Origin: Acaryochloris marina MBIC11017
Lineage (GTDB): Bacteria; Cyanobacteriota; Cyanobacteriia; Thermosynechococcales; Thermosynechococcaceae
Direction of reading: 5' to 3'
DNA length: 32,000 nt
Assembly: GCF_000018105.1 (NCBI RefSeq)
Contig: NC_009925.1
Span: 3,930,001-3,962,000 of the forward strand
The notes beneath the pieces were generated by a model. It saw only the letters and a list, made by a program, of their open reading frames with translations. It was not told the origin of the DNA and made no database searches. This document shows, piece by piece, positions 812 through 18,301 of this stretch (positions are counted from its first letter, which is position 1; each line of letters starts with the position of its first letter). A program made the position numbers and the translations under genes.

Positions 812-2032
812 CTACTCAGGTTGCCCCATGGCCTGGGCCGCTAACCAGGCTGTCGTCCAGGCGTTTTGAAAGTTAAATCCACCGGTAATGCCATCAATGT
901 CGATCACTTCGCCAGCAAAATAGAGTCCGGGACAGCAGCGACTTTCCATGGTTTTGAAGTTGATTTGTTTAAGGTCGACGCCGCCGCAGGTAACAAACTC
1001 GTCTTTGAAGACTCCTTTCCCTAAGACATGAAACTTACCTTGGGTTAGTTCTTGCAGCAGCGATCGCAAATGGGTTTTGGATAGATCTGCCCAGCGCTGT
1101 TGGGGAGAAATCCCTGCTGCAGCAATCAGTTTTTGCCAGAGGCGCTGGGGTAAGTCGACGGGGCAGTGGTTTGCGATCGCACGCTTGGCAACGGCAGTTC
1201 GGGTTTGCCCCAACTGCTGACGCAGGTCTTCATAGGAGGAATGGGGCACCCAATTGACCGTCAATTCTCCCTGATATCGATGTTGATGAAAGGCCCGTGC
1301 TCCCCAAGCCGAGAGTTTGAGGACTGCAGGACCACTCAGTCCCCAATGGGTGACCAAGAGCGGCCCCTGCTGATCAAACTTTTGATCATTCACCGTTAAC
1401 CGCAACTGCACTGGATCAACCGCGATACCGGCTAAGCCTTGCAATCTCGGATCTTTGATTTTGAAGGTAAATAGGGACGGTACTGGCGATACGAGGGTAT
1501 GGCCGAGCTGTTGGGCGAGGCGATAGCCGAGGGGATGACTGCCCGTGGCTAAAAGAATGCGATCGCACCTCAGCTTCTCCCCAGATTTACACCCAACTGT
1601 AAATTGCCCTTCATGCTTGATATGAGTAACGGACATCCCCGTCCGCACCTGAATCCCTAAGTTTTGAGCCGTTCGTTGCAGACAGGCAATAATGGTTTCC
1701 GAATCATTGGTTTTGGGAAACATGCGGCCATCGGCTTCCGTTTTTAAGGAAACTCCGTGGGCTCGGAACCACTGCACCGTATCCTGGGGCTGAAACCGAC
1801 TAAATGCACCTCGTAAGGCTTTAGACCCGCGCGGATAATTGCCCACTAGTTCAGAGGGTTCAAAACAAGCATGGGTAACATTGCAGCGCCCACCCCCGGA
1901 AATTCGCACTTTAGAGAGCAGTTGACCACTGGCTTCCAAAATCGTGATCCGAGTTTGGGAATAGGCTTCTGCACAGGCAATCGCCCCCCAGAAACCAGCC
2001 GCCCCACCGCCGATGACGACAATCTTCACCAT
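812..2032 (-). CDS. HI0933/BaiN-family NAD(P)/FAD-dependent oxidoreductase
   Basis: The N-terminus has a Rossmann dinucleotide motif (VIGGGAAGFWGA). The RISGGGRCNVTH motif and the C-terminal GEVIDIDGITGGFNFQ motif are typical of the HI0933-like flavoprotein family. The ORF is intact at 406 aa. Confidence 0.85.
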   Translation of the reverse strand: MVKIVVIGGGAAGFWGAIACAEAYSQTRITILEASGQLLSKVRISGGGRCNVTHACFEPSELVGNYPRGSKALRGAFSRFQPQDTVQWFRAHGVSLKTEADGRMFPKTNDSETIIACLQRTAQNLGIQVRTGMSVTHIKHEGQFTVGCKSGEKLRCDRILLATGSHPLGYRLAQQLGHTLVSPVPSLFTFKIKDPRLQGLAGIAVDPVQLRLTVNDQKFDQQGPLLVTHWGLSGPAVLKLSAWGARAFHQHRYQGELTVNWVPHSSYEDLRQQLGQTRTAVAKRAIANHCPVDLPQRLWQKLIAAAGISPQQRWADLSKTHLRSLLQELTQGKFHVLGKGVFKDEFVTCGGVDLKQINFKTMESRCCPGLYFAGEVIDIDGITGGFNFQNAWTTAWLAAQAMGQPE

Positions 2033-2062
2033 GGCTTTATTACACCTAAAATTAGGTGCAAT

Positions 2063-3997
2063 TTAGGTCTGAGATTGATTTTTTAAATAGGTATCAATGG
2101 CATCAGACGCGACTTCAGTCAGGGTTTTGCCCTGGGCACTGGCGGTCTCTTTCAGACGGCTATAGACATCTTCCCGCAGGTTAACCCGATGGCGGACTCG
2201 CGCTTTACCGCTGGCGATTTTGCCCGTTTGGGTCGCCGGATCATAGGTGTCGCTATATTGCCGCAGGGCGTCGAAGCCAATGCGATCGCAAAAATCACCA
2301 AAGCTTTCAGCGGTTTTGCCCTTTTGCTTAAAGAACACCAAGAGCGGCTCTAGGGTCGCTTCCAGTTCGTCAATGGGCATCACTTCCAGAAAGGTTCTAG
2401 CGAGCCGAGTCTGATTGGAGCTTCCCCCTAACCAGAGCTGATAGGACGTTGGCTTTATCCCTACAAATCCCAGCTCAGCCATATAGGGACGAGCACAGCC
2501 ATTTGGACAGCCCGTCATCCGGATGACAAAATGCTCTTCTTTCAAATCCAGCTTATTGAGCAGCGCGCGGATGCGATCAATAATGCCGGGAATGGCGCGT
2601 TCTGATTCTGCAATGGCTAGTCCGCAAGTGGGCAACGCTGGACAGGCCATTGCATAGCGCACCAGCGGATCAATCTCCGTCTCTGCTAGCACCCCTGCAT
2701 TGTTCAAAATGCCTTGAATCGCCGCTTTGTCACTGGGCTGAATATTATAAATAATCAGATTGTGATTAGCCGTCAGCCGCATGGGCAGATGGTACTGCTT
2801 CGTAATTTGGCGTAGGGCAGACTTCAGCTGCAGCTTGCCATTGTCAAAGACCCGGCCATTCTCAATAGAAATGCCCAAGAAGAGCTGACCATCCCCCTGT
2901 TCATGCCAGCCTAAGTAATCTTCATACTTAAACTCAGGCAAGGGGCGACTGGGCGCAACAGACTTACCAAAATACTGCTCAACAACGCTGCGAAACTTAT
3001 CAATACCCCAGTCATTCACCAGGTATTTCATGCGGGCATGGCGACGCTGTTGACGGTCACCATAATCTCGTTGGGTGGCCACAATGGCTTTGACTAGGTC
3101 ATAGACATCCTCTTTGGCCACAAAGCCCAGTGGATCGGCAATGCGAGCAAAAGTCTCTTCTTTCTTGTGGGTGCGGCCCATGCCACCCCCGACAAATACG
3201 TTAAATCCTTGCAATTCGTCCTGGTCATCCAGGATAACCACTAGACCCACATCCTGGGTGTAGAGATCAATGGAGTTATCGCCTGGGACAGTAACGGCAA
3301 TCTTGAACTTCCGGGGCATGTAATATTGCCCGTAGATTGGCTCTTCGTCATCGTCTAGGTTAGTGCCGTTGGTATTGCGCTGGCGAGCCGCTTTGACCTC
3401 AGGATGCTCTTCTGCGGATAAGAATTTTTCCCCATCCAACCAAATCTCGTAGTAAGCGCCGGTTTGGGGGGTGAGTAAATCGGCAATCCGATTGGCATAC
3501 TCTTGGGCATAGACATAGTCGGGACGATTAACATAGGGGGCTGGCGGGGCCATCACATTGCGGTTCAAATCTCCACAGGCTCCTAGGGTAGACCCCATGC
3601 TGTGAATGATGGCGGCCATGACCGTTTTTAGGTTCTGCTTGACAATTCCGTGAATCTGGAACCCTTGGCGGGTGGTGGCTCGCAGGGTGTGGTTGCCGTA
3701 GGTCTCGCTGAGTTCATCCAGGGCTTCGTAAAGCTGTGCTGGGATAAATCCACCGGGACTGCGAGTCCGCAGCATAAACTGATAGTCTTTTTCCTGCCCT
3801 TTCGCTCGATTATCACGATTATCTTGCTGATAGGAGCCATGAAATTTGAGGATTTGAATGGCTTCTTCTGGCAAATTTCTCGCATCCGTCTGGAGTTCTG
3901 CAATTAACGGATGGCGTAGATGATGACTGCGCTCTTTAATCCCTTCCAATTTGGAAAGTTTAGGCGGAGTCGGTTGTTTAGGGGGAGCATTGACCAT
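2063..3997 (-). CDS. sir: Assimilatory ferredoxin-sulfite reductase (siroheme/4Fe-4S hemoprotein)
   Basis: The N-terminus ([11 protein letters not shown]...[13 protein letters not shown]) and the Cys cluster motifs ([21 protein letters not shown]) are characteristic of CysI/Sir-type sulfite/nitrite reductases. At 644 aa it carries about 55 extra C-terminal residues relative to CysI-type enzymes (see findings). Confidence 0.9.
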
Positions 3998-4268
3998 GAG
4001 GAAATAGGCAGTTGATGACAGTGTTTAGGTAGCGAATCGAACGATTTCTACCCTTAAGAAAAGGCTAGGCTAACGTCAATATATCCGAGCAATTCCAACG
4101 CGGAGATATTAATGCCCGGTAAGTCGGTCGGGATATCGATGAATCACCTCTTATCTTATCACTGCTTCCTTTGAGCAAACCGTGACAGACCCAAACAATG
4201 CCACAGGTGAGTCCAAATCATCAACGTTAGAACTTAAGCTTTTTTACCAACTAGGCTTGCTCAAGATA

Positions 4269-4297
4269 AATGCACACTAGCGCCGCTAGTGTGCATT
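4269..4297. repeat. Perfect 29-nt palindrome (14-nt arms, 1-nt centre), function unknown
   Basis: AATGCACACTAGCG-C-CGCTAGTGTGCATT was read directly from the sequence. There is no adjacent U/T tract on either strand, so it is not a canonical intrinsic terminator. Confidence 0.9.
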
Positions 4298-5127
4298 CAC
4301 TGTATCTAAAACTCAAAAACTCTGGATGAGGCCCAGGCGAAAACGCTCAAAAGTCCACCCTTTATGGCGCTAGCGTTGGGGATCATGATTGGGTAAACAC
4401 TGTCTCATCCAACATCGGTTCAAATACTCAATCCGATATTGTTGCCAAAAACGGCCTGGATTGAGAACCAGTTTAATGTCCGAATGGAATAAGGGCTGAT
4501 TGAGATATTGCCAAACGGGAAACCAATTTTGATGAGACTTAGAAATCATGACAGTTTTAGGATGTTGGGTGACTCAAGCGTTTAATCCAGGTGGGCTCAG
4601 CATAGCGAAGCCTTTGTACACGTCCCATGTCCTTGAAAGGCCCAATCTTAATAACTTTCATGAAGAATGAAGAGATCGCAATAGGGATCCCTAGAAGTTA
4701 TATAAAATCCAGCCCAAGCAGATGGCAAAGGTGCTTGTCCAGCTGATCGTGATTTGGAATAAAAGACGCGCTCCGTATACGCTTAGAGTGCCCAGAAATG
4801 TCGTAACATTTGTCACCGAATTTCTGCGATTCCCAAAAACTTTACAAATGACAAAATATTTAAGACGCCAAGTGCCAGCGACAAAGTTTATGATTAATTA
4901 ATAATTTCATTACAAAACCCACGAGCAATTCGGCCATAGTGGAGGATGCGTTATTCCTTCACTGCCAGCCTTACTAACGGGCAAGGTTACACTGTATTCG
5001 TTCCTAGGCAAAGCGGGGGAGACTTTGTTGGGCATCTCAAATGGGTGAGGATAACGGTAAACTTATGCCTCAATTGCTGCGGTCTTGCAGGTGCTGAATT
5101 CATTTTTGAGAGGAATCAAGCGTTTCC

Positions 5128-6042
5128 ATGTCTTTATTTGATTGGTTTGCAAATCGACGAAAATCTCATCCTGTGACCAAAGCACAGCCAGAACGAGAAA
5201 TCTCTGATGGCTTGTGGTCGAAGTGTGAGTCGTGTGGTGCTCTAACCTACACCAAAGATTTACGGGCCAATCAAATGGTGTGCCTAGAATGTGGCCACCA
5301 TTTGCGCGTCACCAGTGATGAGCGGATTGCGCAGCTGATTGATGCAGAGACCTGGGTGGCGATGGACAATAACTTAGTTGCCTGTGACCCTCTCCAGTTT
5401 CGAGATCGCAAAGCCTATTGCGATCGCATTCAGGAATACCAAAGCAAAACTGGTCTCCAGGACGCTGTCCAAACAGGGGTGGGTGAACTTGATGGTCTGC
5501 CTCTCGCCTTGGGTGTCATGGACTTCCGGTTTATGGGAGGCAGTATGGGGTCCGTCGTTGGCGAGAAACTGACCCGTTTGATCGAGCATGCCACGCAAAA
5601 CCGTCTTCCTTTAGTGATCGTTTGTGCGTCCGGTGGTGCTCGCATGCAAGAAGGGATGCTGAGCCTAATGCAAATGGCGAAAACCTCTGCCGCGCTAGAT
5701 CAGCACAGAACCAACCGTTTACTCTATATCCCCGTCCTCACCCACCCCACCACTGGTGGGGTGACCGCGAGCTTTGCGATGCTGGGGGATATGATTTTGG
5801 CTGAACCCAAAGCAACTATCGGCTTTGCCGGTCGCCGGGTAGTCGAACAAACCCTGCGAGAAAAACTACCGGATGATTTCCAAACGGCAGAATATTTACT
5901 CAGTCATGGATTTGTGGATGCCATTGTCCCGAGACCAGAGTTAAAGCGAACCTTAGCCCAGCTGATTCGCATTCATGCTCAAATGCCGATGGCCTCAGAT
6001 GTTTCACCTGCCGCTGTTCCAGTTGCCGCTGCCGTTGAATAG
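5128..6042 (+). CDS. accD: Acetyl-CoA carboxylase carboxyltransferase beta subunit
   Basis: The N-terminal Zn-ribbon is CESCGALTY...CLECGHH. The carboxyltransferase core includes [11 protein letters not shown] and [10 protein letters not shown]. 304 aa. Confidence 0.95.
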
Positions 6043-6171
6043 GGGATAGGGGGCTGAACCTTGATCCTCTTCCATTCCAGATTTGACCAATTTATGGAAT
6101 CTGGATTTGGGAAAGGGACGCCTCAATGGCATGATATTAGATGGGTCAACCTTAATAAAATCAGTACGTTA

Positions 6172-6357
6172 ATGATTATGGGGTTTGCAGACCTGTCAAT
6201 CTCGGAAATAGCAGAGGACTATCATCTCTCTATCGAAGAGGTTTGTACATTATGCGATCGTTTGGGTGTCGCTTATAAAGCGCCCCACACCCGTTTAGCC
6301 CTGGAGGATGTCAAAGCACTTATTTTAGAAATTTTGGCTAACCAAGAAAATACCTAA
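6172..6357 (+). CDS. Small conserved hypothetical protein with an IF-2 N-terminal-like helical motif
   Basis: The C-terminal ~59 aa (GFADLSISEIAEDYHLSIEEVCTLCDRLGVAYKAPHTRLALEDVKALI) resembles the IF2_N-type helical module. The start is uncertain: the track's TTG at 6061, or ATG at 6094, 6172 or 6178. Confidence 0.45.
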   Translation: MIMGFADLSISEIAEDYHLSIEEVCTLCDRLGVAYKAPHTRLALEDVKALILEILANQENT

Positions 6358-6565
6358 GATCAAACCAATAGGTGACGACTCAGGTTTTAATTCAATTAAG
6401 CCTAAAACTCTTTTACTGCTTTATTCATGCCTTTTCCTCTTCTCATTTCTGTGGACTTGATCACTGTCACCAGCAACGGGCAGGTTTAGATAGAGTACCC
6501 AGTTCTGTAGAGTGGATTTAACTGTGTTGAGAGCCTGATAATTAAACGAAATTGAAAGGAGAACT

Positions 6566-7054
6566 ATGCTGAAAAGATACATGTTGCTGGCGGTGGCTAC
6601 AGTATTTTTTGCTTTTCAAGTATTAACCAGTACTGCAACTGCTGCTGAATTAGATGATGCGACTCGAACAGTTGCGTTAAATGAGGGGAGTACCGTTACT
6701 CTATCCACTCAGCAAGCGAAAGAGGGCCAGCGCTTATTCAACTTTGCCTGTGCAAACTGCCACATTGGTGGTGATACAAAAACTAACCCCAGTATCAACT
6801 TGTCTTCAGCTAGCTTGGCTGGCGCTAACCCCCGACGTGACAACGTTGAAGGTCTTGTGGATTACATGAACAATCCCACAACCTACGATGGTTTTGACAC
6901 CATTTCTGAAGTGCATCCTAGTACTCAAAGTACGGATGTCTTCCCTCTAATGAGAAACCTGTCTGATGAGGATCTATTCGACATCGCAGGTCATATTCTC
7001 ATCCAGCCTTCAGTGATCGGTGATCAGTGGGGTGGCGGTAAAGCCAACCGTTAA
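6566..7054 (+). CDS. psbV: Photosystem II cytochrome c-550
   Basis: It has a signal peptide, the heme motif CANCH, the distal-His region YDGFDTISEVHP and the conserved MRNLSDEDL. An AGGAG Shine-Dalgarno lies upstream. 162 aa. Confidence 0.95.
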   Translation: MLKRYMLLAVATVFFAFQVLTSTATAAELDDATRTVALNEGSTVTLSTQQAKEGQRLFNFACANCHIGGDTKTNPSINLSSASLAGANPRRDNVEGLVDYMNNPTTYDGFDTISEVHPSTQSTDVFPLMRNLSDEDLFDIAGHILIQPSVIGDQWGGGKANR

Positions 7055-7124
7055 GTGTCCATTGGTTGTTGACCAGTATGAACGACGTTATCTTTATAAA
7101 GTTCATATTCGAGGCGGGCATCAA

Positions 7125-7640
7125 ATGCTGAAATCGTGGCTCAAATGTTGTTTTCTTGCAGTTCTTTGGGTTTGTTTGGGAGTTTTCCCCAACAGTTCCA
7201 TCGCCCAAGCTGGAGATATTGAGGACTATATTGTTCGGTATCTCAAGGTGACAGAACCTGTCCCTATCGTGATGGACGCTTCTGGAGAGACCCAATTGTT
7301 TTCTCCAGAAGAGCTATCAGATGGGAAACGGTTATTTGACGATAACTGTAAGAATTGCCATGTAGGTGGAGCGACATTGCCTAATCCTGTGCAATCTTTG
7401 TCAATGAAGAATTTGCAGGGGGCAACCCCTTCTCGGGATAACGTTGCTAATCTCATTGAATTTCAACGAGAGCCAACCATTTATGATGGTAGCGATGTTA
7501 GCTTTTGGTGCCGCCAGGTCCCGGATACTTGGCTGCCCGATAAAGAATTGGCAAATCTAGAAGCCTTTATTCTCAGAGCTGCTGAAGTAGCTAGAGGTTG
7601 GGGTACTGAAGATGTTGCTGATGGCATAGATTTTACTTAA
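7125..7640 (+). CDS. psbV2: Cytochrome c-550-like protein PsbV2
   Basis: It is a paralog of the preceding psbV (RLFDDNCKNCHVGG, RDNV, PTIYDG). It has a signal peptide (MLKSWLKCCFLAVLWVCLG). The ATG at 7125 avoids overlap with psbV, whereas the track start at 7020 overlaps the psbV 3' end. Confidence 0.85.
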   Translation: MLKSWLKCCFLAVLWVCLGVFPNSSIAQAGDIEDYIVRYLKVTEPVPIVMDASGETQLFSPEELSDGKRLFDDNCKNCHVGGATLPNPVQSLSMKNLQGATPSRDNVANLIEFQREPTIYDGSDVSFWCRQVPDTWLPDKELANLEAFILRAAEVARGWGTEDVADGIDFT

Positions 7641-7881
7641 GGTATTTGTCCTTAGAATTGCTTTAATCAAAGGATTAGTGCAATATCGATGCCGTTAAGG
7701 AAAGACTTGTAATCCTATGAACTCTCCGTTTGGGGTTCTAAAGTTGCAGGGACGATCCTAAAATAATGATGCGAGTCATCGCATTTGCCATAAATAAGCA
7801 CCGTATATATTCATCATTTGGTGTCTGGCGTTAATAAGTTTGGTAGCCTTGCTGCCAATATGAATTGAGAGGAGAAACACG

Positions 7882-8211
7882 TTGAAAAAACTTCTATCTA
7901 TTGCCTTAACTGCACTTGCTATCCTGACCTTTGCCATCAGCAGCCCTGTTTTAGCCGCTGATGCGGGTGCTGGCGCTGGTGTCTTCAATGCCAATTGTGC
8001 TGCTTGCCATGCTGGTGGTAACAATGTTGTCCAGGCTGACAAGACTCTAAAAGCGGATGCTTTGTCCGCTAATGGTATGGACTCTGCTGATGCCATTATC
8101 AATCAGGTCACCAACGGTAAAGGTGGTATGCCTGCATTTGGTGCTAGCCTTTCCCCTGCTGATATCGAGAACGTTGCTGCATACGTTTTAGATCAAGCTG
8201 ATAAGTGGTAA
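7882..8211 (+). CDS. petJ: Cytochrome c6
   Basis: It has a signal peptide ending VLAADA, the heme motif CAACHAGG and the Met-ligand region NGKGGMPAF. It starts at TTG with GAGGAG 8 nt upstream. 109 aa. Confidence 0.9.
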
Positions 8212-8240
8212 GTCTTTCCAAATAACTAGTTCATAGTTTT

Positions 8241-8272
8241 CCCCCTTTTCATATGAAGAGGGGGTTTTGTTT
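8241..8272 (+). terminator. Rho-independent terminator downstream of petJ
   Basis: A 10-bp stem (CCCCCTTTTC/GAAGAGGGGG, one G-U pair) with a 4-nt loop ATAT is followed by TTTTGTTT. It begins 30 nt after the petJ stop. Confidence 0.7.
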
Positions 8273-8362
8273 GGCCGGCCGATTGCTATTTTTCGCACGG
8301 GTACTCACCATCTTTGGGTGGGTTTATGTCATCTTGTACCTAGTACCTGTAGAGATGTTCCT

Positions 8363-9262
8363 ATGCGCCGAATTCGTCCATCTTACTTGTGGTCTTTAGG
8401 ATTAGGACTATTCTTGGCCTGTGCACTCCCGACGATTGGCTGGCAATTAATTAGCGCTTCGTCAGCGGTGAGTGTTGAGCAAAAAAACCTTTTAGACCAG
8501 TTATCTAAAGTGCAAGTGGTCTATTTAGGGGAAACCCACAACAGTGTGGCGGACCACAAAGCCCAGTTAGCGATTATTCGAGGGTTATTTGAACGACAAC
8601 CCAAATTGGCCATCGCTATGGAAATGTTTCAGCGTCCCTTCCAAGAGCCCATCAATCGTTATCTAGCAGGAGAGATCACGGAGGCGCAGCTGCAAAAAGA
8701 AACAGAGTATCGGCAACGCTGGGGATTTGACTGGGAATTCTATGCACCCATTTTGCGGTTTGCTAAGCAGCATCAACTTCCGGTCATCGCGTTAAATACG
8801 CCCACTGAGATTACGAAAAAAGTGGGTCGGCAGGGGTTGGAAAGCCTCACCCCGGAAGACTATACCTTTATCCCGCCTTTGGCCGATATAGACCTGAGCA
8901 ATACGGCCTATCGTCAAAAACTCACAACCATTTATGAGCAATTTCATCACGGTCCCGCGTCTGAAGAAGGATTTGAACGGTTTTTTTCAGCCCAAGTTCT
9001 TTGGGATGAAACCATGGCTGAAAAAATAGCCCAAACCGTTCGTCAACAGCCTGATCAACTGGTGGTTGTCATCGCTGGGAAAGGCCATATTGAACAAGGC
9101 TATGGCATACCCGATCGGGTTTCACGCCGCCTTAGCAAGTTTTCTAGCCAGGATCAACCGTTTCGCCAGTCTTCTATTTATCTCAATCCGACAGAAGAGG
9201 CTCGCAAGATCGTGAATCCTCCCGCCGCCACGCATTTTTGGACTCAGCCTGGATCGGAATGA
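8363..9262 (+). CDS. ChaN/Tiki-superfamily (haem-binding uptake-like) lipoprotein
   Basis: VVYLGETHNSVADHKAQLAII followed by AIAMEMFQRPFQ matches the GxxH...E motif layout of the ChaN/PF04187 family. The N-terminus has a lipobox-like LFLAC. The ATG at 8363 is chosen because the track's upstream extension runs through the petJ terminator. Confidence 0.65.
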   Translation: MRRIRPSYLWSLGLGLFLACALPTIGWQLISASSAVSVEQKNLLDQLSKVQVVYLGETHNSVADHKAQLAIIRGLFERQPKLAIAMEMFQRPFQEPINRYLAGEITEAQLQKETEYRQRWGFDWEFYAPILRFAKQHQLPVIALNTPTEITKKVGRQGLESLTPEDYTFIPPLADIDLSNTAYRQKLTTIYEQFHHGPASEEGFERFFSAQVLWDETMAEKIAQTVRQQPDQLVVVIAGKGHIEQGYGIPDRVSRRLSKFSSQDQPFRQSSIYLNPTEEARKIVNPPAATHFWTQPGSE

Positions 9263-9278
9263 TACCCAATCTCGATTT

Positions 9279-9584
9279 ATGATTCTAGAAGTTGCAATCC
9301 TGGATGTCATTCCTGGTCAAGCAGACCAGTTTCAGGCAGACTTTCAACAGGCCCAACATATTATCGCTGCCATGCCGGGTTATCTGGGGCATGAGCTGCA
9401 GCGCTGTATTGAACAACCATCCCGTTATTTGCTGTTGGTGCACTGGCAAACGTTAGAGGATCATGTGCAGGGCTTTCGCCAATCTCCTCAATATCAACAG
9501 TGGAAGACGTTGCTGCACCATTACTATGATCCATTCCCGATAGTTGAGCATTATGCAGCGGTTTTTTCGCAAACAAAGCGTTGA
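9279..9584 (+). CDS. Antibiotic-biosynthesis-monooxygenase (ABM) fold protein
   Basis: It is about 100 aa with the typical ABM layout (ILDVIPGQ...FQ, PGYLGHEL, LLLVHWQTLEDH, F..S..Y..W). Confidence 0.7.
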   Translation: MILEVAILDVIPGQADQFQADFQQAQHIIAAMPGYLGHELQRCIEQPSRYLLLVHWQTLEDHVQGFRQSPQYQQWKTLLHHYYDPFPIVEHYAAVFSQTKR

Positions 9585-9675
9585 TCAGAGATTGCTATCG
9601 ATATTGGGCCGAGAGGGATCGATATCGGCTGGTTTTAACCTCATCAACTCTGTATATACCTAATAGGAGATTTCT

Positions 9676-10407
9676 ATGCTAGATGAGAATAGCAAGATTG
9701 CCCTAGTGACGGGGGCCAACCGTGGATTGGGGCTAGAGGTTTGTCGGCAATTGGCCCAGCAAGGTGTTAGCGTCATTCTCACGGCTCGTGATCGGCAGAA
9801 GGGAGAACAAGCAGCCCAACAGCTCCAGCAAGAAGGGCTTGAAGTGATGCTCAAATTCGTAGATGTTGCGGATGACCAGAGCGTGGCCCAGTTGGTGCAT
9901 GACCTAGAAGGCAATCTCCCTCATTTAGATATTCTGATTAACAATGCAGGCATAAATTTTGATTTTCAGCAGCAAACCCTAGCGGCTGATTTGAATGATG
10001 TTCAGAATACTTTGAATACGAACCTGTTTGGCGCTTGGCGCATGACCCAGGCCTGCTTACCGCTGCTAAAGAAGAGTCAGCATGGCCGCATTGTGAATGT
10101 TTCTAGTGGAGCAGGGTCGTTTGCTGGCCCCAGAGGTCTGCAGGAGCAGGGCGGGGGATTGCCAGCCTATGGGATATCGAAAGCTGCTTTGAATGCGCTA
10201 ACTGTTAAGCTCAGCCGCTCCCTACTAGAGACGGGAATTTTAGTTAATGCAGTTTGCCCGAATTTCACTGCGACTTATCCAGGAACAGAAGAGATGGGGG
10301 CGAGACCGGTTCCTGAGGGGGCCGCTGCAATTGTTTGGGCTGCGATGCTACCGGATGATGGTCCCACCGGTGGATTTTTCCGAGATGGTCAGCCCCTCCC
10401 CTGGTAG
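9676..10407 (+). CDS. Short-chain dehydrogenase/reductase (carbonyl-reductase-like)
   Basis: Motifs present are TGANRGLG (cofactor binding), NNAG, and the catalytic YGISK (YxxxK) preceded by VSSGAG. AGGAGA lies upstream of the ATG. Confidence 0.9.
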   Translation: MLDENSKIALVTGANRGLGLEVCRQLAQQGVSVILTARDRQKGEQAAQQLQQEGLEVMLKFVDVADDQSVAQLVHDLEGNLPHLDILINNAGINFDFQQQTLAADLNDVQNTLNTNLFGAWRMTQACLPLLKKSQHGRIVNVSSGAGSFAGPRGLQEQGGGLPAYGISKAALNALTVKLSRSLLETGILVNAVCPNFTATYPGTEEMGARPVPEGAAAIVWAAMLPDDGPTGGFFRDGQPLPW

Positions 10408-10520
10408 GGAGGATGTAATGGCAGATGCATGATATGAGACATGCTTCAAGTGGAAAAAACGCTGGGTCATTTGTCTCCATGGGCACCCTAGAGGTAGGTA
10501 TGACCATGAATGTTATGACT

Positions 10521-10934
10521 ATGAAAAAATCTATTTCATTTTTACTGTTGCTAACGGCCACTTGGTTTAGTGGTTTGACCCTGAGTGCTGAGGCCAGAGC
10601 TAAGTGTGTGGTTGGACAAAGGGGTGAAGTGTTATGGAAGGGGAAATGGTATCCAGCTCAGGTTCTAGATACGAGTGGTCGACAATGCTACATCACCTAT
10701 GACGGCTATAGCAGTTCTTGGGATGAGTGGGTCGGTCCGAACCGTTTTCGTCCTTATGCTCCTGCCTCCTCTAATGCGGCTTATCGAGTGGGACAATCGG
10801 TGCAGATTTTGTGGAAAGGGAAATGGTACCCCGGACGTGTATTGGACGTCAGCGGGAACCGTTACTTTATTACTTACGATGGCTACAGCAGTTCTTGGAA
10901 TGAGTGGGTTGGTCCCGCTCGACTGAGCCGATAG
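10521..10934 (+). CDS. Secreted protein with two tandem Tudor/Agenet-like (SH3-fold) repeats
   Basis: The signal peptide is MKKSISFLLLLTATWFSGLTLSAEA. Two 59-aa-period repeats follow (VLWKGKWYPAQVLDTSGRQCYITYDGYSSSWDEWVGPNR and ILWKGKWYPGRVLDVSGNRYFITYDGYSSSWNEWVGPAR). The ATG at 10521 is preferred over the track start at 10425. Confidence 0.7.
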   Translation: MKKSISFLLLLTATWFSGLTLSAEARAKCVVGQRGEVLWKGKWYPAQVLDTSGRQCYITYDGYSSSWDEWVGPNRFRPYAPASSNAAYRVGQSVQILWKGKWYPGRVLDVSGNRYFITYDGYSSSWNEWVGPARLSR

Positions 10935-10951
10935 TAGAACGTTAATGCTGT

Positions 10952-12052
10952 TCACATATCTGCAGCAATAGTTAGACAGTCATGAAACGGCGCATCCGTT
11001 TTGAAGGCTTGGGGATTAATGTGGGTGAGGCTGGCCTGATAGCCTTGCTTGTGGAGTTGTGCAATGATGCGATCGCGTTTTGGTATATCCATTTTTCCCC
11101 ACCGTCCAATGTCTGCAACGGAGTAAAAATAAGGCGGCATCAGGGCTTCATCTTGCATCACCTGTAAGAGTTGCACTCGATCGGACCAGCCCCATTCCTG
11201 GGCAAGCGTCTGCATAGAAGTGAGCCAGGTGGGATGATGCAATGGCCCTAGCCACATAGGACCGCTGAGGGTTAACGGTGGACCTTGGTGGGGGCAGGTG
11301 GCTCGGCTGAGCTGGTCCCAAGCGACGGTTTGATAGTGACCGCAGTGGTGACAATAGCCGATAAATCCCAGGCCATGTTGGGATTGGGATGCGGTGACCT
11401 GGATGAGTACCCGATAAATTTGGCCTTGAAAATAAGAGAAAATGGGCTGAATATCTTGTCCTAGGATTTGAGCTTGTTGCCAGCAACTCCCTAACAATAG
11501 CCGTAAGCCTTGTTCATGGGCAGCAGGATGCGTTCGTGCCCATGCTCCCAGTAAGCGCTGGCTATGCTTGGGGTTGTGTCCCGCTAAGGTGCGGCTATCC
11601 GTGCCCGTGATATAAAGGAGTCCACCTGCTTTAACGGTTTGTAGACAGCCTTGCAGAAAAGGGGTAGGCAAGCCAAAACTGTCCAAGTCAATGAAATCAA
11701 ACTGTTCTGGGCATTTAGGAAAGAGCTGTGCGGCTGAATGATACGAAAGCTGATACCGCTGCGGGGGCAGTTGGCTTAAATTATCGGTTAAGACAGTTGC
11801 CATGTCAGGGTTCGCATCGTTAGCCCAAATCCAATCGGCACCACTTTCTAGGGCATAGCGTTGCGATCGCACCCCACATCCGGTCATCACATCTAAAACT
11901 GTTAGGTGACCTATTTTTTGGCGATAGACAGCCGCCGCCAATATGCCTAAATCGCGGGCGGGTCGACTGCTGGGGCGAAAAAATGCTGGCCCAACTTTAA
12001 ATAGAGCTTTGCCTTCTTGGAATTGATCAGTGGCGTTCCCAGACCATGACAT
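10952..12052 (-). CDS. trm1: TRM1-family tRNA (guanine-N2)-dimethyltransferase-like SAM methyltransferase
   Basis: The motif order matches Trm1. It runs FFRPSSRPARDL, VLDVMTGCGVRSQRYALE (SAM site), IDLDSFGLPTPFL, YITGTDSRTLAGH and HEQGLRLL. It continues with a Cys/His cluster (CHHCGH...CPH), GPMWLGPL, and C-terminal GYQASLTHINPQAFKTDAP. Confidence 0.8.
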   Translation of the reverse strand: MSWSGNATDQFQEGKALFKVGPAFFRPSSRPARDLGILAAAVYRQKIGHLTVLDVMTGCGVRSQRYALESGADWIWANDANPDMATVLTDNLSQLPPQRYQLSYHSAAQLFPKCPEQFDFIDLDSFGLPTPFLQGCLQTVKAGGLLYITGTDSRTLAGHNPKHSQRLLGAWARTHPAAHEQGLRLLLGSCWQQAQILGQDIQPIFSYFQGQIYRVLIQVTASQSQHGLGFIGYCHHCGHYQTVAWDQLSRATCPHQGPPLTLSGPMWLGPLHHPTWLTSMQTLAQEWGWSDRVQLLQVMQDEALMPPYFYSVADIGRWGKMDIPKRDRIIAQLHKQGYQASLTHINPQAFKTDAPFHDCLTIAADM

Positions 12053-12097
12053 TTAAGGGGTTTGCCCCAAACAACTTAGCATCTCGCTTTAGCCTCC

Positions 12098-13003
12098 TCA
12101 CACAATATCTCCAGGATGAGCATGACATGCTACCGGCCGCTTTGAGATCAGGGATTGAGAGGGAGAGGATGATCGCTTATCAGTTCGCCTGAAATACCAT
12201 TGCCCCCATAAGACCAAGCCAGCGATTGCGATGACGCTGACCACTACTAAAATTCGATATCGTTGGGCCAAACGTTTTTGGCTAGCCTCCATGTCTTGTC
12301 GCAAGCGATGTTCAACGGCTTGAATCTGTGACTTGAGCTGAGCAATATTGGGCGAGAGCGTTTCGAGGGATTCGAGTCTATATTCTACTGCTTCATATTT
12401 GAACGCTTCTATTTGGGTGACCAAGCGGGCAAGTTGATCGCCCTGACGGGTGAGCTGCGCTTCTAAGGTATGGACGAGTTGGATCTGTTCAGACTGTTGT
12501 TGTTGCCAATGGCTATTTTGCGTATCGGACGTTTGACGCAGATGAGCCATGTCTATTTGCAACTGTTGGATGTTCTGGTCCTGATCAGACCTCGCTTGTT
12601 TGTCTTGCTGCACCTGTTGTTTGAGCTGAGTTAATACTTGCATGATGCTTTCATGCTGCTGTGTGGCTTGATCTATCCCCGCGATTTGTGTCGAGACCGC
12701 TTGGATGCTTTGGCTGCAAGTCTCTACTTGCCTTGCTAGGGTGTGATATTGCTGTTCTAGGGTCTGCCGATTGTTGTGGAGCAACGCCATCGTTGTCTCC
12801 AGGTCGAGCACCTGAGCGGATAAGAGTTCGGCTTGCTCAGTGGCGGCTGTGAGGCTTGCCTGCTGTTGCTGCATGGCCTGGAGCAGTTGTTTGACTTCAT
12901 CCACACGACAGGCTTGTTGGACGAGATGTTCGCCGCGCTCGATGCCAGTGTGAATCAATAGTTCTAATTTCTCCAGTCCTTGGAGCGTTTCTAAATCATT
13001 CAT
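12098..13003 (-). CDS. Gln-rich coiled-coil protein with a single C-terminal transmembrane anchor
   Basis: About 250 aa are heptad-like and Q/L/E-rich (about 20% Gln), followed by ILVVVSVIAIAGLVLWGQWYF and a short basic/Ser tail. Its ATG overlaps the upstream stop codon (ATGA at 13003-13000). Confidence 0.75.
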   Translation of the reverse strand: MNDLETLQGLEKLELLIHTGIERGEHLVQQACRVDEVKQLLQAMQQQQASLTAATEQAELLSAQVLDLETTMALLHNNRQTLEQQYHTLARQVETCSQSIQAVSTQIAGIDQATQQHESIMQVLTQLKQQVQQDKQARSDQDQNIQQLQIDMAHLRQTSDTQNSHWQQQQSEQIQLVHTLEAQLTRQGDQLARLVTQIEAFKYEAVEYRLESLETLSPNIAQLKSQIQAVEHRLRQDMEASQKRLAQRYRILVVVSVIAIAGLVLWGQWYFRRTDKRSSSPSQSLISKRPVACHAHPGDIV

Positions 13004-15285
13004 AGCGTGAGATGGTCAATAACGTCAGCTAAACGGGTTTGTAGCGCTTCTCCCAAAAGAATCAGCAGATCACCAGACTGATCCAATAGTTCAGGGAAAG
13101 GGACATCCTCCAAAATATCCAGGTCAAACTGTTTGCGCACGCGTAGGGCCTCATAGATTAAGCCTTGATGGTCTAGGTCCTCCGCAATCTGATGGCCTAA
13201 ACGTTGATACTCTGCTGCATCCGTCTGTTGAAGCGACTGGGCTGTGGCGACCGCGTCCCAGGAGCGGTACATGGCTCGGAAGAGTAAACACCGTAATGAT
13301 ACTTCCAGCTCTTCACCCTGTGCATGGTGTAAAATCATAGGATTGCTCAAGATATCGAAACGGTCTTGAAGCCGTTGTAATGCCGCTTGCTCCCAATCAT
13401 TGTGGTCAATCTTAGCCGCTTGCAAGAGTGCATAGGTATCGGCATATAGATGGAGTGGATCGGTTGTCAAACTCGTCAGTAAACGATGGCGGATCTCGGT
13501 TGCCCGCTCAACCGCATCGGTACCGCCCACAGCTTCTATAATCCATTGAATCGTTTGGTCAACCGCTGCAGCGTCCTCTAACGGAATCTGGTCACAGTGG
13601 ACCAATGCATCGGGAACAAGCCTAGTCATCTCGTCGACTTCCAGGCGAGTGGCCAGGACCAAGAGCCGTGCCCGCGTTCGGGTTAAGAGGGTATACCACT
13701 GGTAGGCTTGTTCGGAGGTGGGAATATCTGTCGATGTAAAGGTCGGTAAAGCGATACAGCCTTCAAATTCTCGACCTTTAGCTTGGCTGACATCTAGGAA
13801 TTCTAAGGCCCGAGTGGTGGGATAGAGCAGATCATTCAGGTGCGATCTCAACACTTTGACTTGTTGCGCTAACTCCACCCTTAAATATCGATGCTGCGAG
13901 TTCTCTTGCAAGGGAGAGCATTGCACCAAGCGCTGGAAGAAGCCCATGATGTCTGCCTGCGACTCACACACGAGCAGTCGGACGGGGTCACCCACTTCTA
14001 GGGCATCTTCAGGTTGGGCAACTGCGGCTGTAATCGTCCGTTTCCCTGGGTCACCGTGTTTCGTAATCGAGAGAAAGGGATTGGCAAATTGCAAGATGTG
14101 ACCCGAATTTCGATAGTTAGACCGAAAGGGTTGGATAGATTTGTCCAATTCTAGCTGTCCCCACTCAAAGTCAACGGGCTGAATCCGCTGATTTAAATCG
14201 CCCAGCAGCCACAAATGGACTCGGTAGGGATGATGAGTTTGCCAGGATTGGCATAGGGCAATCACGGCTTTGAGTTCTGCCAGCAGATAGTCTTGGGCTT
14301 CATCAATAATGATTAAGGTATTTTTTGCGATCGGTGGTGGTTGATGAGCGAGCCGTTGAGCCACATCAAAGCGAGACAATTGGTTGCCTAATTGGCGTCT
14401 CCAATGGTCAGGCTTAATCTTTCTCAGGAGTTGAAGGCGCTGTTGGTTGCTATGAAACTGCGCACTTTTACGTAAATTCTTTGTGTCGTGATCCAAGATG
14501 TAGGCTTGATAAAGCAGAATATCTCGATATGAGATCGCTCCCAATGTCTTCAGGTGATGGCTTTGTTTGGCTGCGGCATAAAAAGCCTCCCGCTCCTGGT
14601 CTGGAGACGCTAAACAATCTTTTAAGTCAGGGTAAAGCTGACCTAACCAGGTCGCGAAAGTCATCGGTTGGAGTCCGTGGAGCCCCTCATCTTGTTGCTG
14701 CAGATATCGTTCAATCTCTTCCATGAGCAGCGAAGGCACGATTAACGAGACCTGCCAACCTTGTCGATAATACTTACTGGCCCAGCCTGTTGCCGTAATA
14801 CTTTTGCCTGTACCTGGCGGGCTTTGAATCAGTCGCGCAGAAAACTCAGTGTTGTGCTGGGCTAAGAGGTCATGGCCCACCTGCTCCTGCTCAGGCGTTA
14901 AGACGGGTGAATATTTATACCCGGCATCATAGACCCAGGCTCGCCAATCATTACCTGTCTCGCCGTGCCAAACGTAACAAGGACAATATTGACGCTGATC
15001 ATAGTCCTGGGAGTAAGTATGGTCGTCCCGTGCATCAATACCAATGACCGTCTTATCGTAGGCATCCCTTTTCCAAATAATTCGGGCTGAATGACCAGGG
15101 ATTTTGGTCCTAGATAGGGTTTTATAGCGGCCTTGTAAAGATTTGGTATCTAGTGCATTAGGACCCGCTCGCTTATGGTCTGCCTGCATTCCTGCCAAGA
15201 TGGTCGGAATATCATCAAAAAACTGCTCAATTGAAGATTGTTTCAGATCTCTTAAAGCAGCCGGGATGAGCTTGATCCTAGTCAT
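13000..15285 (-). CDS. RelE/ParE-fold N-terminal domain fused to a UvrD/HelD-like SF1 helicase/ATPase with a helical C-terminal extension
   Basis: Residues 1-92 follow a RelE/ParE-like pattern (IKLIPAALRDLKQ ... SARIIWKRDAYDKTVIGIDARDDHTY). The SF1 motifs are LTPEQ, SPPGTGKS, LIIIDEAQD, LLGDLNQRI, NYRNSGHILQFAN, AKGREFEG and YTLLTRTRARLLVL. The last ~200 aa have no motif I recognise. The ORF is intact at 761 aa. Confidence 0.8.
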   Translation of the reverse strand: MTRIKLIPAALRDLKQSSIEQFFDDIPTILAGMQADHKRAGPNALDTKSLQGRYKTLSRTKIPGHSARIIWKRDAYDKTVIGIDARDDHTYSQDYDQRQYCPCYVWHGETGNDWRAWVYDAGYKYSPVLTPEQEQVGHDLLAQHNTEFSARLIQSPPGTGKSITATGWASKYYRQGWQVSLIVPSLLMEEIERYLQQQDEGLHGLQPMTFATWLGQLYPDLKDCLASPDQEREAFYAAAKQSHHLKTLGAISYRDILLYQAYILDHDTKNLRKSAQFHSNQQRLQLLRKIKPDHWRRQLGNQLSRFDVAQRLAHQPPPIAKNTLIIIDEAQDYLLAELKAVIALCQSWQTHHPYRVHLWLLGDLNQRIQPVDFEWGQLELDKSIQPFRSNYRNSGHILQFANPFLSITKHGDPGKRTITAAVAQPEDALEVGDPVRLLVCESQADIMGFFQRLVQCSPLQENSQHRYLRVELAQQVKVLRSHLNDLLYPTTRALEFLDVSQAKGREFEGCIALPTFTSTDIPTSEQAYQWYTLLTRTRARLLVLATRLEVDEMTRLVPDALVHCDQIPLEDAAAVDQTIQWIIEAVGGTDAVERATEIRHRLLTSLTTDPLHLYADTYALLQAAKIDHNDWEQAALQRLQDRFDILSNPMILHHAQGEELEVSLRCLLFRAMYRSWDAVATAQSLQQTDAAEYQRLGHQIAEDLDHQGLIYEALRVRKQFDLDILEDVPFPELLDQSGDLLILLGEALQTRLADVIDHLTL

Positions 15286-15403: not shown

Positions 15404-15685
15404 CTAAATTTGGGTAATGGTGTTGACCAACTCGTCTGAACTCAATGTTGTGACAATAAAAACTTCTTGCACTGTCTTGCCTGAACGAGCCAAGACTTTA
15501 AAGCCGCCCCGAATGGGAACCGAAATTCGCAGCTTCAAGTGGGGGGCGTGGCCCTTGACTCGGCTAATCACGCCGGGGGTAACGGTTTGAATGCCTGGAT
15601 AGTGAATCAATTTTCCTAAAATCTCAAGCAAGCCGGGAATATGGGTAGAGTGATTCAGCACTAATCGGCCTTTATTGCCAGACAT
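15404..15685 (-). CDS. Small conserved protein, DUF2103-like
   Basis: The 93-aa sequence (LVLNHSTHIPGLLEIL...VTPGVISRVKG...GGFKVLARSGKTVQEVFIVT) matches my recollection of the DUF2103 family. Its start lies 3 nt after the clpS stop. Confidence 0.55.
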   Translation of the reverse strand: MSGNKGRLVLNHSTHIPGLLEILGKLIHYPGIQTVTPGVISRVKGHAPHLKLRISVPIRGGFKVLARSGKTVQEVFIVTTLSSDELVNTITQI

Positions 15686-15688: not shown

Positions 15689-16033
15689 TTAAGCGGCCTC
15701 CAAGGGAGCCATGGTTAAACCCGCTCGCTGGAGCTGCATATGATAGAGTTCAGCTTGTTCTTGAGGACCGACCCAAACAATGGCCTGGCCTTCGAAATGA
15801 ATTTGATTGGTTAATTCCCAAGCCTTGTCAGACGTCATATGGGGAATATAGGTCATTAATGTTTTAGCCACATGCTCAAACGTATTGACATCATCATTGA
15901 CCACAATCACCTTGAAATTCGGATAGGGTTTCCGAACCGTTTTTTGTGCCTGTTTTTCTTCAGGGCGGGTAACAGGTGTTTGCACTGCGGTGATCGCCAT
16001 GCGTGGACTATCTAGCTCAGAAAGCTTAAGCAT
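15689..16033 (-). CDS. clpS: ATP-dependent Clp protease adaptor ClpS
   Basis: The ClpS core is YPNFKVIVVNDDVNTFEHVAKTLMTYIP...AWELTNQIHFEGQAIVWVGPQEQAELY. 114 aa. Confidence 0.9.
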   Translation of the reverse strand: MLKLSELDSPRMAITAVQTPVTRPEEKQAQKTVRKPYPNFKVIVVNDDVNTFEHVAKTLMTYIPHMTSDKAWELTNQIHFEGQAIVWVGPQEQAELYHMQLQRAGLTMAPLEAA

Positions 16034-17373: not shown

Positions 17374-17583
17374 ATGACTAAAGGATTCACTTCAGACGAT
17401 CGCGGTTACGTTAACAGCTTTGCGGTTGAGCCTAAGACCTCCGCTCAGGAAGAGCCCGTATTTGGTTTCAACAAGAATGCTGAGCGAATCAGTGGACGCC
17501 TAGCCATGGTGGGTTTCATGTCCATCCTGCTTTTAGAACTAGCCACAAACCTCAACTTCATCCAAATCGTGACGGGTGTCTAA
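17374..17583 (+). CDS. High-light-inducible protein (HLIP/CAB/ELIP superfamily, one helix)
   Basis: FGFNKNAERISGRLAMVGFMSILLLELAT is the canonical chlorophyll-binding helix motif (ExxNGRxAM-like). 69 aa. Confidence 0.9.
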   Translation: MTKGFTSDDRGYVNSFAVEPKTSAQEEPVFGFNKNAERISGRLAMVGFMSILLLELATNLNFIQIVTGV

Positions 17584-17638: not shown

Positions 17639-18301
17639 ATGGGGGATTCTATCCAGGCCTCGTTGTTAGACTGTAAAGCCATGCTAGTTGACCTTCACTC
17701 CGACTCCCTCATTGAACAATATGCGAACGGTATCCGAGACTTTAGCTCCACAATTTTGACCGGGGATAGTCTGTGTGAACTGTTGCTAAATGGTATTAAT
17801 TTTGAACAGGCAAACCTAGCTCGGGTCAATATGAGCCTGACCCAATTCCGCGGGAGTAACCTCAGAGGCGCGAATTTATCCCAGGGACTACTGTGGCGTA
17901 CAGACTTTATGGATGCCTGTTTAGAAGTGGCTAACTTAAGTCAATCCAAGCTAATTCGAGCAACTTTAACACGAGCTAACTTAAGGCAAGCTCTACTGGC
18001 AAAAGCAGATCTCAGGGTTGCGAATCTACGAGCAGCCAATTGTCCAGGGGCAAATCTGGCAGGAGCGGATCTTCGCTATGCTGACCTGACTGGCATTAAC
18101 CTCAGTGGTGCAAACCTCAGTGGTGCTGACTTAACTGGTGCTGATTTAACCGGTGCTGATCTAAGTGGGGCCATTTTAACCGGCACTATTCTTAGGCAAG
18201 TAGATTTAAGTCAGGTGATCCTACAGGATGTAGACTGGAACCATCGCCACATGGACGTTCTAGAAAACAATCCAGTGTTGACTGCGACTGAAAAGAAGTA
18301 A
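17639..18301 (+). CDS. Pentapeptide-repeat protein
   Basis: There is a long run of A(D/N)L(x)x pentapeptides (ANLSGADLTGADLTGADLSGAILTG...). Confidence 0.9.
   Translation: MGDSIQASLLDCKAMLVDLHSDSLIEQYANGIRDFSSTILTGDSLCELLLNGINFEQANLARVNMSLTQFRGSNLRGANLSQGLLWRTDFMDACLEVANLSQSKLIRATLTRANLRQALLAKADLRVANLRAANCPGANLAGADLRYADLTGINLSGANLSGADLTGADLTGADLSGAILTGTILRQVDLSQVILQDVDWNHRHMDVLENNPVLTATEKK

Follow-up and report, generated by a model that had tools for sequence, protein, structure and literature searches.

Within a 32,000-nucleotide stretch of the genome of Acaryochloris marina MBIC11017 (NC_009925.1, assembly GCF_000018105.1; hereafter the window, whose positions serve as coordinates throughout) lies a gene for a 761-residue protein in which a RelE-superfamily toxin domain is joined to an ATPase of superfamily 1 (SF1) of UvrD-like type. 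The gene (13000..15285, minus strand), here called the RelE-ATPase gene, overlaps a downstream gene for a coiled-coil protein with a predicted membrane anchor, and the two are conserved together. RelE toxins in their textbook form are small nucleases held in check by a dedicated antitoxin, and nothing of that kind accompanies this gene. We read the pair as a two-gene conflict module of toxin type, defensive or resembling abortive infection, in which an ATP-gated RelE effector would be regulated or anchored by its partner. The probability we attach to this reading is roughly 0.45.

The open reading frame (ORF) begins at the first in-frame start codon and ends with the stop codon at 13000..13002, and its product is identical to an A. 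marina entry (P0001) annotated 'hypothetical protein / DNA helicase'. Residues 1–93 (15007..15285, minus strand) are confirmed, by profile comparison, predicted structure and residue conservation, as a RelE-superfamily (BECR-fold) domain that retains residues of catalytic type. Taken alone, the N-terminal 110 residues of the window protein have no match in Pfam. A profile built from 32 homologous N-terminal domains matches solved RelE and YoeB toxins in the PDB from end to end, the best being Mycobacterium tuberculosis RelE1 (9g12, E=1.8e-5), with further matches to Thermus thermophilus 2khe, Rv2866 (3g5o), Pyrococcus horikoshii 1wmi and Escherichia coli RelE (4v7k, E=5.7e-4). Seven of the 32 domains also match the Pfam family ParE_toxin (PF05016) individually, the best at E=3.8e-6; this family includes E. 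coli RelE as well as ParE toxins (PMC11980606). AlphaFold2 models the full 761-residue protein with a predicted local distance difference test score (pLDDT) of 86.9 and a predicted TM-score of 0.83, and residues 1–93 alone with a pLDDT of 85.7. When the N-domain model is compared with the PDB by Foldseek, the top 50 matches are all RelE, YoeB, YafQ, HigB or ParE toxins (TMt up to 0.77). RelE, YoeB and YafQ outrank ParE, structures of which appear from rank 34 onwards at TM-scores of about 0.5, and the N-domain profile gives E=1.3e-8 with RelE against 0.23 with ParE1.

In the profile alignment R59, K61, R68, R86 and Y91 of the A. marina protein correspond to K52, K54, R61, R81 and Y87 of E. coli RelE, residues known to orient and cleave mRNA in the ribosomal A site. 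Among 59 aligned full-length homologs, which share only 29–71% identity with the window protein, R59 is kept in 57, a lysine or arginine at position 61 and R68 in all 59, R86 in 58 (lysine in the other) and Y91 in 56 (phenylalanine in three). Conservation of the five positions over such divergence argues for a catalytically competent RNase that needs control, and against a domain that is ParE-like or degenerate. ParE toxins do not have the RelE-type catalytic positions (PMC11980606). With the structural ranks and profile scores, these residues led us to down-weight a gyrase poison of ParE type. An aromatic-rich linker, modelled at pLDDT 81–92, follows at residues 94–126 (14908..15006, minus strand). 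In the homolog alignment its Y104 and Y123 are invariant, and at least 90% of the sequences keep P102, W106 and W114.

Residues 127–560 (13606..14907, minus strand) make up the ATPase core, with two RecA-like domains recognised from conserved motifs and Foldseek. The SF1 motifs Q, I, Ia, II, III, IV, V and VI are all present in order and are invariant or nearly so in the 59 homologs. On the minus strand these include motif Q, LTPEQ (residues 129–133, 14887..14901); motif I, SPPGTGKS (155–162, 14800..14823); motif II, LIIIDEAQD (324–332, 14290..14316); motif III, LLGDLNQRI (360–368, 14182..14208); motif IV, NYRNS (390–394, 14104..14118); motif V, AKGREFEG (502–509, 13759..13782); and motif VI, TRTRARL (535–541, 13663..13683). 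Twenty residues are without exception among the homologs: Q133, G158, G160, K161, D328, E329, Q331, D332, G362 and D363, together with N365, Q366, R367, R392, G432, K503, G504, F507, R536 and R540. Since these motif residues are invariant, the protein is predicted to be an active NTPase.

To which branch of SF1 does the core belong? Its Pfam matches (AAA_30, ResIII, AAA_19, UvrD_C_2) are all below threshold, AAA_19 scoring 18.0 bits against a cut-off of 25.1 and UvrD_C_2 15.7 against 27.4 in the window protein; distant RelE-fused relatives pass the UvrD-helicase family PF00580 with 44–54 bits against a cut-off of 23. The structural neighbours found by Foldseek (Upf1, Ighmbp2, UvrD, HelD, Sen1, SLFN11 and RecD; TM-scores of 0.2–0.4, E down to 1.8e-8) mix enzymes that act on RNA, such as Upf1 and Sen1, with others that act on DNA, such as UvrD and RecD. 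Motifs III (GDxNQ) and IV (NYRxS) are UvrD-like, and on this basis we place the core in the UvrD/Rep-like lineage. NCBIfam searches with single window sequences returned noise only, and the sole match of a phmmer search of the whole protein against the PDB, to MIC60, was rejected as spurious. The remainder of the protein, residues 561–761 (13003..13605, minus strand), is modelled as an all-helical domain of about ten helices, mostly at pLDDT of about 90, with conserved W581, E632, R670 and E712. It has no Pfam match (216 residues tested alone) and no sequence match in the PDB.

An earlier sequence-only reading of this stretch had given the ORF the same coordinates, 13000..15285, and every motif it quoted lies at the residues it named. 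It had described an N-terminal RelE/ParE layout, a complete set of SF1 motifs and a helical end of about 200 residues with no known motif, and had proposed a check on whether basic, histidine or tyrosine residues of catalytic type are retained; the results above agree with its description, and basic and tyrosine residues of that type are retained. Its analogy with the RNA polymerase-recycling ATPase HelD fared less well and has been down-weighted: HelD is one of many generic SF1 matches at low TM-score, no closer than Upf1 or UvrD (TM-scores 0.28–0.32), and nothing specific speaks for it.

The second component of the module is encoded directly downstream on the same strand. The partner gene (12098..13003, minus strand; 301 residues) has an ATG start that overlaps the RelE-ATPase stop codon by 4 nucleotides (ATGA), and translation of the two genes is coupled. 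Its product carries an N-terminal helix motif at residues 1–40 (12884..13003, minus strand), identified in an alignment of 62 partners and running approximately [ST]-D-x-[EQ]-[TIV]-x-x-x-L-x-x-L-x-x-x-I-x-x-G-[IL]-x-x-A. A coiled coil rich in glutamine and glutamate (together 25%) occupies the middle of the protein, and a putative transmembrane anchor lies at residues 251–271 (12191..12253, minus strand; Kyte-Doolittle 19-residue mean of 2.24 at residues 251–269). A pattern scan of one genome per species, covering 185,579 species, returned 76 loci with a RelE-ATPase gene. In about 63 of these the end of the gene is intact and the sequence continues beyond it; in about 56 of the 63 a same-strand ORF with the partner motif follows, starting between -40 and +142 nucleotides from the RelE-ATPase stop and mostly between -8 and +60. 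Beyond the motif the coiled coil is variable (140–650 residues). By their C-termini the 62 aligned partners, among them Slr7083 and the partners from PCC 7002 and a Gemmatales genome, divide into 39 with a transmembrane-like end, five with a tryptophan-rich 'WWWPxNWWWK', three with 'CDRPxW' and 15 others. One partner gene contains five 75-bp tandem repeats, or 25-residue units (locus L057, 10476-10850), which suggests that partner length varies through internal duplication; a CRISPR-like signal at that locus comes from these repeats and is false.

When flanking ORFs of at least 90 residues were clustered across the 76 loci, the partner was the only recurrent neighbour. Small upstream ORFs (35–160 residues, within 700 nucleotides) gave no conserved cluster, only lineage-specific ones of six loci at most. 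The two-gene module is thus the conserved unit. The sequence-only reading had stated that no antitoxin-sized ORF precedes the gene. A 93-residue ORF does precede it (15404..15685, minus strand), but it is a DUF2103 gene, and no small ORF on that side is shared across the loci. The conclusion drawn there, that this is not a conventional toxin-antitoxin locus, holds: with DUF2103 upstream and a 301-residue coiled-coil and transmembrane protein downstream, the locus lacks the arrangement of a type II, RelBE-like system. What had been overlooked is the overlapping partner, the obvious candidate regulator. The partner has no antitoxin-family match in Pfam, PADLOC or NCBIfam, only coiled-coil noise, and its PADLOC matches to JetC, LmuB and ZorA were rejected on those grounds as evidence of membership.

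The pattern-scan loci are almost all cyanobacterial, the exceptions being one Gemmatales metagenome-assembled genome (MAG) and one doubtful 'Sphingobacterium' bin. The latter (L079) has neighbours typical of a Picosynechococcus plasmid and is therefore probably mis-binned. In this bin (8001-10218) and in two further MAGs (L072, 8001-10306; L053, 7974-10315) the ATPase gene is seemingly split by a frameshift, for which sequencing error is a possible cause. When 1.84 billion representative proteins were searched exhaustively with the family profile, 82 matched at E<=1e-30 and 239 at E<=1e-10. The matches form tiers: the cyanobacterial family itself; non-cyanobacterial proteins of full architecture; a cyanobacterial sister family; and proteins in which only the RelE and ATPase parts match. 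To the second tier belongs the Gemmatales protein, with a RelE domain at E=1.9e-14 and a partner gene of its own. Members of the sister family (870–910 residues, for example a Geminocystis NIES-3709 'PhoH family protein') match the whole profile, and their genes, too, are closely linked to one for a coiled-coil partner that shares the N-terminal motif. The last tier comprises proteins of 810–1200 residues from Thermotogota, Calditrichota and other groups that end in TPR or SNAP-like repeats. One of these, a RelE-UvrD-TPR protein on a Petrotoga metagenome contig (L083, 1-15780), has no partner; its surroundings, which look like a defence island, hold a second UvrD helicase, a NERD-UvrD gene, fragments of ISL3 transposase and a CARF-family gene (Cas_APE2256). 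Where the C-terminal domain is of the helical type, as in the Gemmatales homolog and the sister family, the partner is present too; the TPR-tailed Petrotoga relative has none. This points to the C-terminal domain as the putative docking site of the partner. Automatic COG annotation at the Joint Genome Institute (JGI) already labels several homologs 'RelE'. Judged from sequence, the fusion of RelE with a UvrD-like ATPase is a broad and uncharacterised architecture.

Searches of plasmids by tblastn add further copies, some of them in laboratory strains. Homologs are present on pSYSA of Synechocystis PCC 6803, pSYLA of PCC 6714, pAQ6 of Picosynechococcus PCC 7002 and a plasmid of PCC 7003. On pSYSA (L081, 11773-14160) slr7081 and slr7082 are a single RelE-ATPase gene split by one in-frame TAG, with slr7083 next, and published knockouts and annotations have treated the two as separate genes. 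The pAQ6 copy (L082, 11800-14183) is frameshifted. The copies in the sister strains are intact, at 795 residues in PCC 6714 and 793 in PCC 7003. The product of slr7083 carries the partner motif; its similarity to the window partner is limited to about 35 residues and the coiled-coil character, and it ends in the 'CDRPxW' motif where the window partner has a transmembrane helix. Its place downstream of a RelE-ATPase gene and its shared N-terminal motif make it the ortholog-level counterpart, and by motif and position the window partner can be assigned to the Slr7083 or C3a168 family.

Two lines of published work bear on this family. Shah et al. (2018) list slr7083 as type III-B accessory cluster C3a168, of 'unknown' function (PMC6546367). 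Adjacency to a type III interference module is found only in a divergent subclade and not in the window, where no cas gene lies within 8 kb. Springstein et al. (2020) report that Slr7083 self-assembles into nets of filaments and localises to the cell periphery, that its overexpression and complementation failed in the motile strain, and that it is a strain-specific protein; deletion gave cells without chlorophyll signal and with cytokinesis defects (PMC7002697). The upstream RelE-ATPase gene is not discussed in that paper, in which the word 'helicase' does not occur. One speculation is that the Slr7083 phenotypes might arise because the neighbouring Slr7081 fragment, which contains RelE, is deregulated, and not from a role in the cytoskeleton. 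As a separate observation, a 310-residue P-loop protein (cluster 35 of Shah et al.) is encoded directly upstream of the RelE-ATPase gene on both Synechocystis plasmids (slr7080, L081 10726-11658; L088 7660-8592). An HD-domain gene and a CRISPR-associated gene of TIGR03985 precede it there, and the window has no counterpart of it.

The surroundings of the module differ between two parts of the family. A divergent subclade lies in defence regions; in the majority clade, the window included, none of the neighbours within 8 kb is a cas or defence gene. In a Leptolyngbyaceae MAG (L004, about 970-14300; also L062) the module sits inside a type III-B operon, in the order cmr2-cmr3-cmr4-cmr5, the module, and a cmr6/1-like RAMP gene, with cas1 and cas2 downstream. 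A further copy (L076) stands beside cmr genes and a WYL-domain gene. The pSYSA copy has CRISPR2 on one side and CRISPR3, a type III-B module, on the other, and that of pSYLA lies beside BREX and Cmr genes. The plasmid copies of PCC 7002 and PCC 7003 are among WYL, VapBC and PIN genes, with a RAMP gene near the former. Cas genes occur near only two of the 76 genome loci and WYL-domain genes near two more, the plasmid copies being additional to these. A CRISPR-like signal at another locus (L009, 12835-13310) was dismissed as false: a 79-bp unit is repeated there six times in perfect tandem, with no spacers between the copies, at a distance of about 2.5 kb downstream from the ATPase gene. Rates of change are also uneven. 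Between A. marina and a second Acaryochloris species, which share the order ClpS, module, Trm1, the ATPase gene is 71% identical and the partner 56%, against 79–96% for the neighbours.

The activity, gating, docking, trigger and role that we infer for such a module may be connected as follows. The effector would be the RelE domain, acting as a ribosome-dependent endoribonuclease, and the covalently joined UvrD-like ATPase would be its sensor or gate. At rest the RelE domain would be kept inactive by packing within the protein, by the partner, or by both. The N-terminal helix of the partner may dock on the C-terminal domain and tether the enzyme at the membrane, the partner thereby standing in for the missing antitoxin. 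The trigger might be foreign nucleic acid that the ATPase engages, or the partner lattice being disturbed; in response the protein would change its conformation in an ATP-dependent manner and the RelE domain would become exposed. Once free, the domain would enter ribosomal A sites and cleave mRNA, or possibly rRNA, and translation would shut down.

Several results lead us to prefer a conflict module. The catalytic and ATPase residues are conserved, a conventional antitoxin is absent and the coupled partner gene is obligatory. One subclade occurs on defence plasmids and in type III-B loci, the module is recurrently disrupted in laboratory strains, and it has changed more rapidly than the genes around it. 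A CARF gene, a NERD-UvrD gene and transposases are neighbours of the Petrotoga relative. There are precedents in Cami1, CnuH and helicase-gated nucleases such as Hachiman, and the independent scoring of slr7083 as a type III-B accessory cluster can be counted as a further conflict signature. Of the two roles suggested by the sequence-only reading, an abortive-infection effector gated by the helicase is the better fit, given the subclade beside type III-B loci and the disruption in laboratory strains; the other was an ATPase that targets or remodels stalled ribosomes or mRNA.

A number of observations pull the other way. The window copy, like most loci of the family, sits among housekeeping genes (ClpS, DUF2103, Trm1) in conserved synteny, its base composition is native to the window, and the window contains no CRISPR array, cas and defence genes being absent for 8 kb around the gene. 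Phage genomes and IMG/VR viral contigs yielded no relatives, so that a phage-borne origin is not supported. The PADLOC matches to GajB, Nhi and AbiO are at E 7.5e-5 or weaker and cover P-loop motifs only. A protein of 761 residues might not be able to place its RelE domain in an A site, and the putative docking of the partner on the C-terminal domain is suggested by co-occurrence. Single knockouts of slr7080 to slr7084 left CRISPR3 plasmid interference unimpaired (PMC6546367); the strain used has the interrupted RelE-ATPase allele, and plasmid interference was the only assay. Finally, deletion of slr7083 in the motile strain reduced twitching motility and disturbed cytokinesis (PMC7002697), which could point to a cell-biological role.

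Is the module then part of ordinary cell maintenance? One could picture the SF1 motor tracking mRNA or engaging stalled ribosomes, with the RelE domain cutting the A-site codon for release. The partner would place the enzyme where membrane proteins are made, at the thylakoid or cytoplasmic membrane, and the whole would amount to a bacterial counterpart of Upf1-type decay. The stable housekeeping surroundings and the absence from phages just described suit such surveillance, as do the conserved RelE residues, the predicted membrane anchor, the peripheral location of Slr7083, and the presence of the RNA helicases Upf1, Ighmbp2 and Sen1 among the best sequence-level and Foldseek matches of the core. 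We nevertheless consider it unlikely. A core quality-control factor would not typically be so patchily distributed (76 loci in 185,579 species; 82 representatives at E<=1e-30), nor would functional copies be missing from standard model strains. Moreover, one subclade is plasmid-borne and adjoins CRISPR loci, the partner diverges quickly, and the distant relatives classify as UvrD-type enzymes, which typically act on DNA.

The CRISPR association itself allows another interpretation, that the pair is an ancillary module of type III CRISPR-Cas working beside Cmr complexes or at a step after them, for instance in the removal or cleavage of transcripts marked by type III targeting, with stand-alone chromosomal copies such as that of the window either derived or independently acting. 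At least four lineages have the module inside a type III-B locus or next to one (the Leptolyngbyaceae MAG, L076, Synechocystis 6803 and 6714, and PCC 7002 with its nearby RAMP gene), the C3a168 listing is of subtype B, and Cami1 shows that RelE domains do serve as type III effectors. This interpretation appears improbable to us, because Pfam and NCBIfam searches of the RelE-ATPase detected none of the known sensor domains for cyclic oligoadenylates, CARF and SAVED included, many copies stand alone (cas genes near 2 of 76 genome loci and none in the window), and the slr7080 to slr7084 knockouts did not affect interference. Least probable among the alternatives is a RelE fold that does not cleave, serving as a ribosome- or RNA-binding adaptor or as a ParE-like gyrase poison, with the ATPase as the main activity and the cytoskeletal or motility role of the partner as the primary function of the operon. 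PF05016 does hold both RelE mRNases and ParE gyrase inhibitors, the filaments of Slr7083 and its effects on motility and cytokinesis would be explained, and the residues of RelE-family proteins differ greatly from member to member, in active and inactive ones alike (PMC11090510). Against it stand the five RelE-type positions kept across the 59 diverged sequences and the profile and structure matches, which favour RelE, YoeB and YafQ over ParE.

Among known systems, the type II modules RelBE, YefM-YoeB and DinJ-YafQ share with the present protein the fold, its topology, profile homology and counterparts of the five RelE residues. A canonical RelE is a stand-alone toxin of about 90 residues, whereas here the domain is the N-terminal 12% of a 761-residue protein; and in place of a RelB, YefM or DinJ antitoxin there is a downstream coiled-coil membrane protein of 140–650 residues. 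Cami1, a 70S-bound CARF-RelE protein (PDB 8phj) that serves type III CRISPR as an ancillary ribosome-dependent RNase and is among the Foldseek matches of the N-domain, likewise fuses RelE to a regulatory or sensor domain, and the one subclade neighbouring type III-B loci adds to the likeness. It differs in having CARF where the present family has an SF1 ATPase, and here RelE is N-terminal and most members are away from cas genes. HelD has a UvrD-like core too, with DEAQD-type motif II and GDxNQ-type motif III, but at its N-terminus, where the present protein has the RelE fold, it carries a Gre-like coiled coil as a probe for the secondary channel of RNA polymerase. In Hachiman (HamAB) and Gabija (GajAB) an SF1 or SF2 ATPase is described as restraining or licensing a nuclease effector; that effector is a separate DNase, and here a predicted ribosome-dependent RNase is fused in cis.

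A further parallel is CnuH of the CoCoNuT systems, an Upf1-like SF1 helicase with a predicted RelE or colicin D-like 'RTL' domain (PMC11090510). We found no other precedent in which an SF1 helicase carries a domain resembling RelE. Common features are the presence of both on one polypeptide, a coiled-coil-rich system and predicted RNA targeting, the role of CnuH being itself a prediction (PMC11090510). The RTL domain lies between an OB-fold domain and the Upf1-like core, and CnuH works with homologs of McrB and McrC; here RelE is at the extreme N-terminus of a UvrD-like core, the C-terminal domain and the partner differ, and no McrBC-type neighbours occur in the window or the 76 loci, so that this is not a CoCoNuT. 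A survey of multidomain RelE and ParE toxins (Gerdes 2025) never mentions helicases and set aside many multidomain proteins for which an antitoxin was not identifiable (PMC11980606). We found no description of the RelE-helicase fusion in the searched literature or defence libraries, where PADLOC, NCBIfam and Pfam gave sub-threshold matches only. The best match of the ATPase in PADLOC-DB v2 is RTasHel (E=2.6e-6, 24.6 bits, about 110 residues), and such motif-level matches, being sub-significant, were rejected as evidence of membership. The earlier claim that the architecture belongs to no characterised family is thus borne out, and the module is novel as a system; it is less isolated than that claim implied, in view of the JGI 'RelE' labels, the Slr7083 studies and the CnuH precedent, and its parts are of known kinds with conceptual precedents.

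The remaining features of the window are ordinary for the most part. The module belongs to a run of minus-strand genes that includes ClpS (15689..16033), the housekeeping-type DUF2103 gene and a Trm1-type tRNA methyltransferase (10952..12052). Rfam and tRNA scans of the window found no RNA genes and no tRNAs, and promoter and terminator scans did no better than on shuffled sequence. Beyond Trm1, on the plus strand, a 169-residue protein (10425..10934) combines a hydrophobic segment at its N-terminus with a tandem pair of repeats of Tudor/Agenet/chromo-like type (Pfam Agenet 1.6e-8, Tudor-knot 3.1e-8), a domain type that is unusual in a bacterial and apparently exported protein. Also on the plus strand are a 69-residue protein resembling high-light-inducible proteins (17374..17583; weak Chloroa_b-bind match) and an adjoining pentapeptide-repeat protein (17639..18301), both ordinary cyanobacterial genes.

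A wider proposal, more tentative than the conflict module it extends and in our view rather doubtful, is that RelE-UvrD fusions are widespread and unrecognised single-chain immune or stress effectors, 'toxin plus sensor', in which an SF1 motor has replaced the antitoxin. The cyanobacterial enzyme would be parked on a membrane-anchored lattice of Slr7083-family protein that is both inhibitor and spatial sensor, and a disturbance of the envelope or membrane, or foreign nucleic acid, would release the nuclease; the toxic overexpression, failed complementation and cytokinesis defects seen with Slr7083 would then be by-products of a deregulated toxin module. The broken copies in PCC 6803 and PCC 7002 make negative results obtained in those strains uninformative. 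If the conflict module is real, it would represent a new form of control over a ribosome-dependent RNase, through ATP-driven gating and spatial sequestration, and a family spanning several phyla would join the catalogue of conflict systems. It would also link two so far unlinked observations in Synechocystis, that of Slr7083 as a cytoskeletal and motility protein and that of slr7083 as a type III-B accessory gene.

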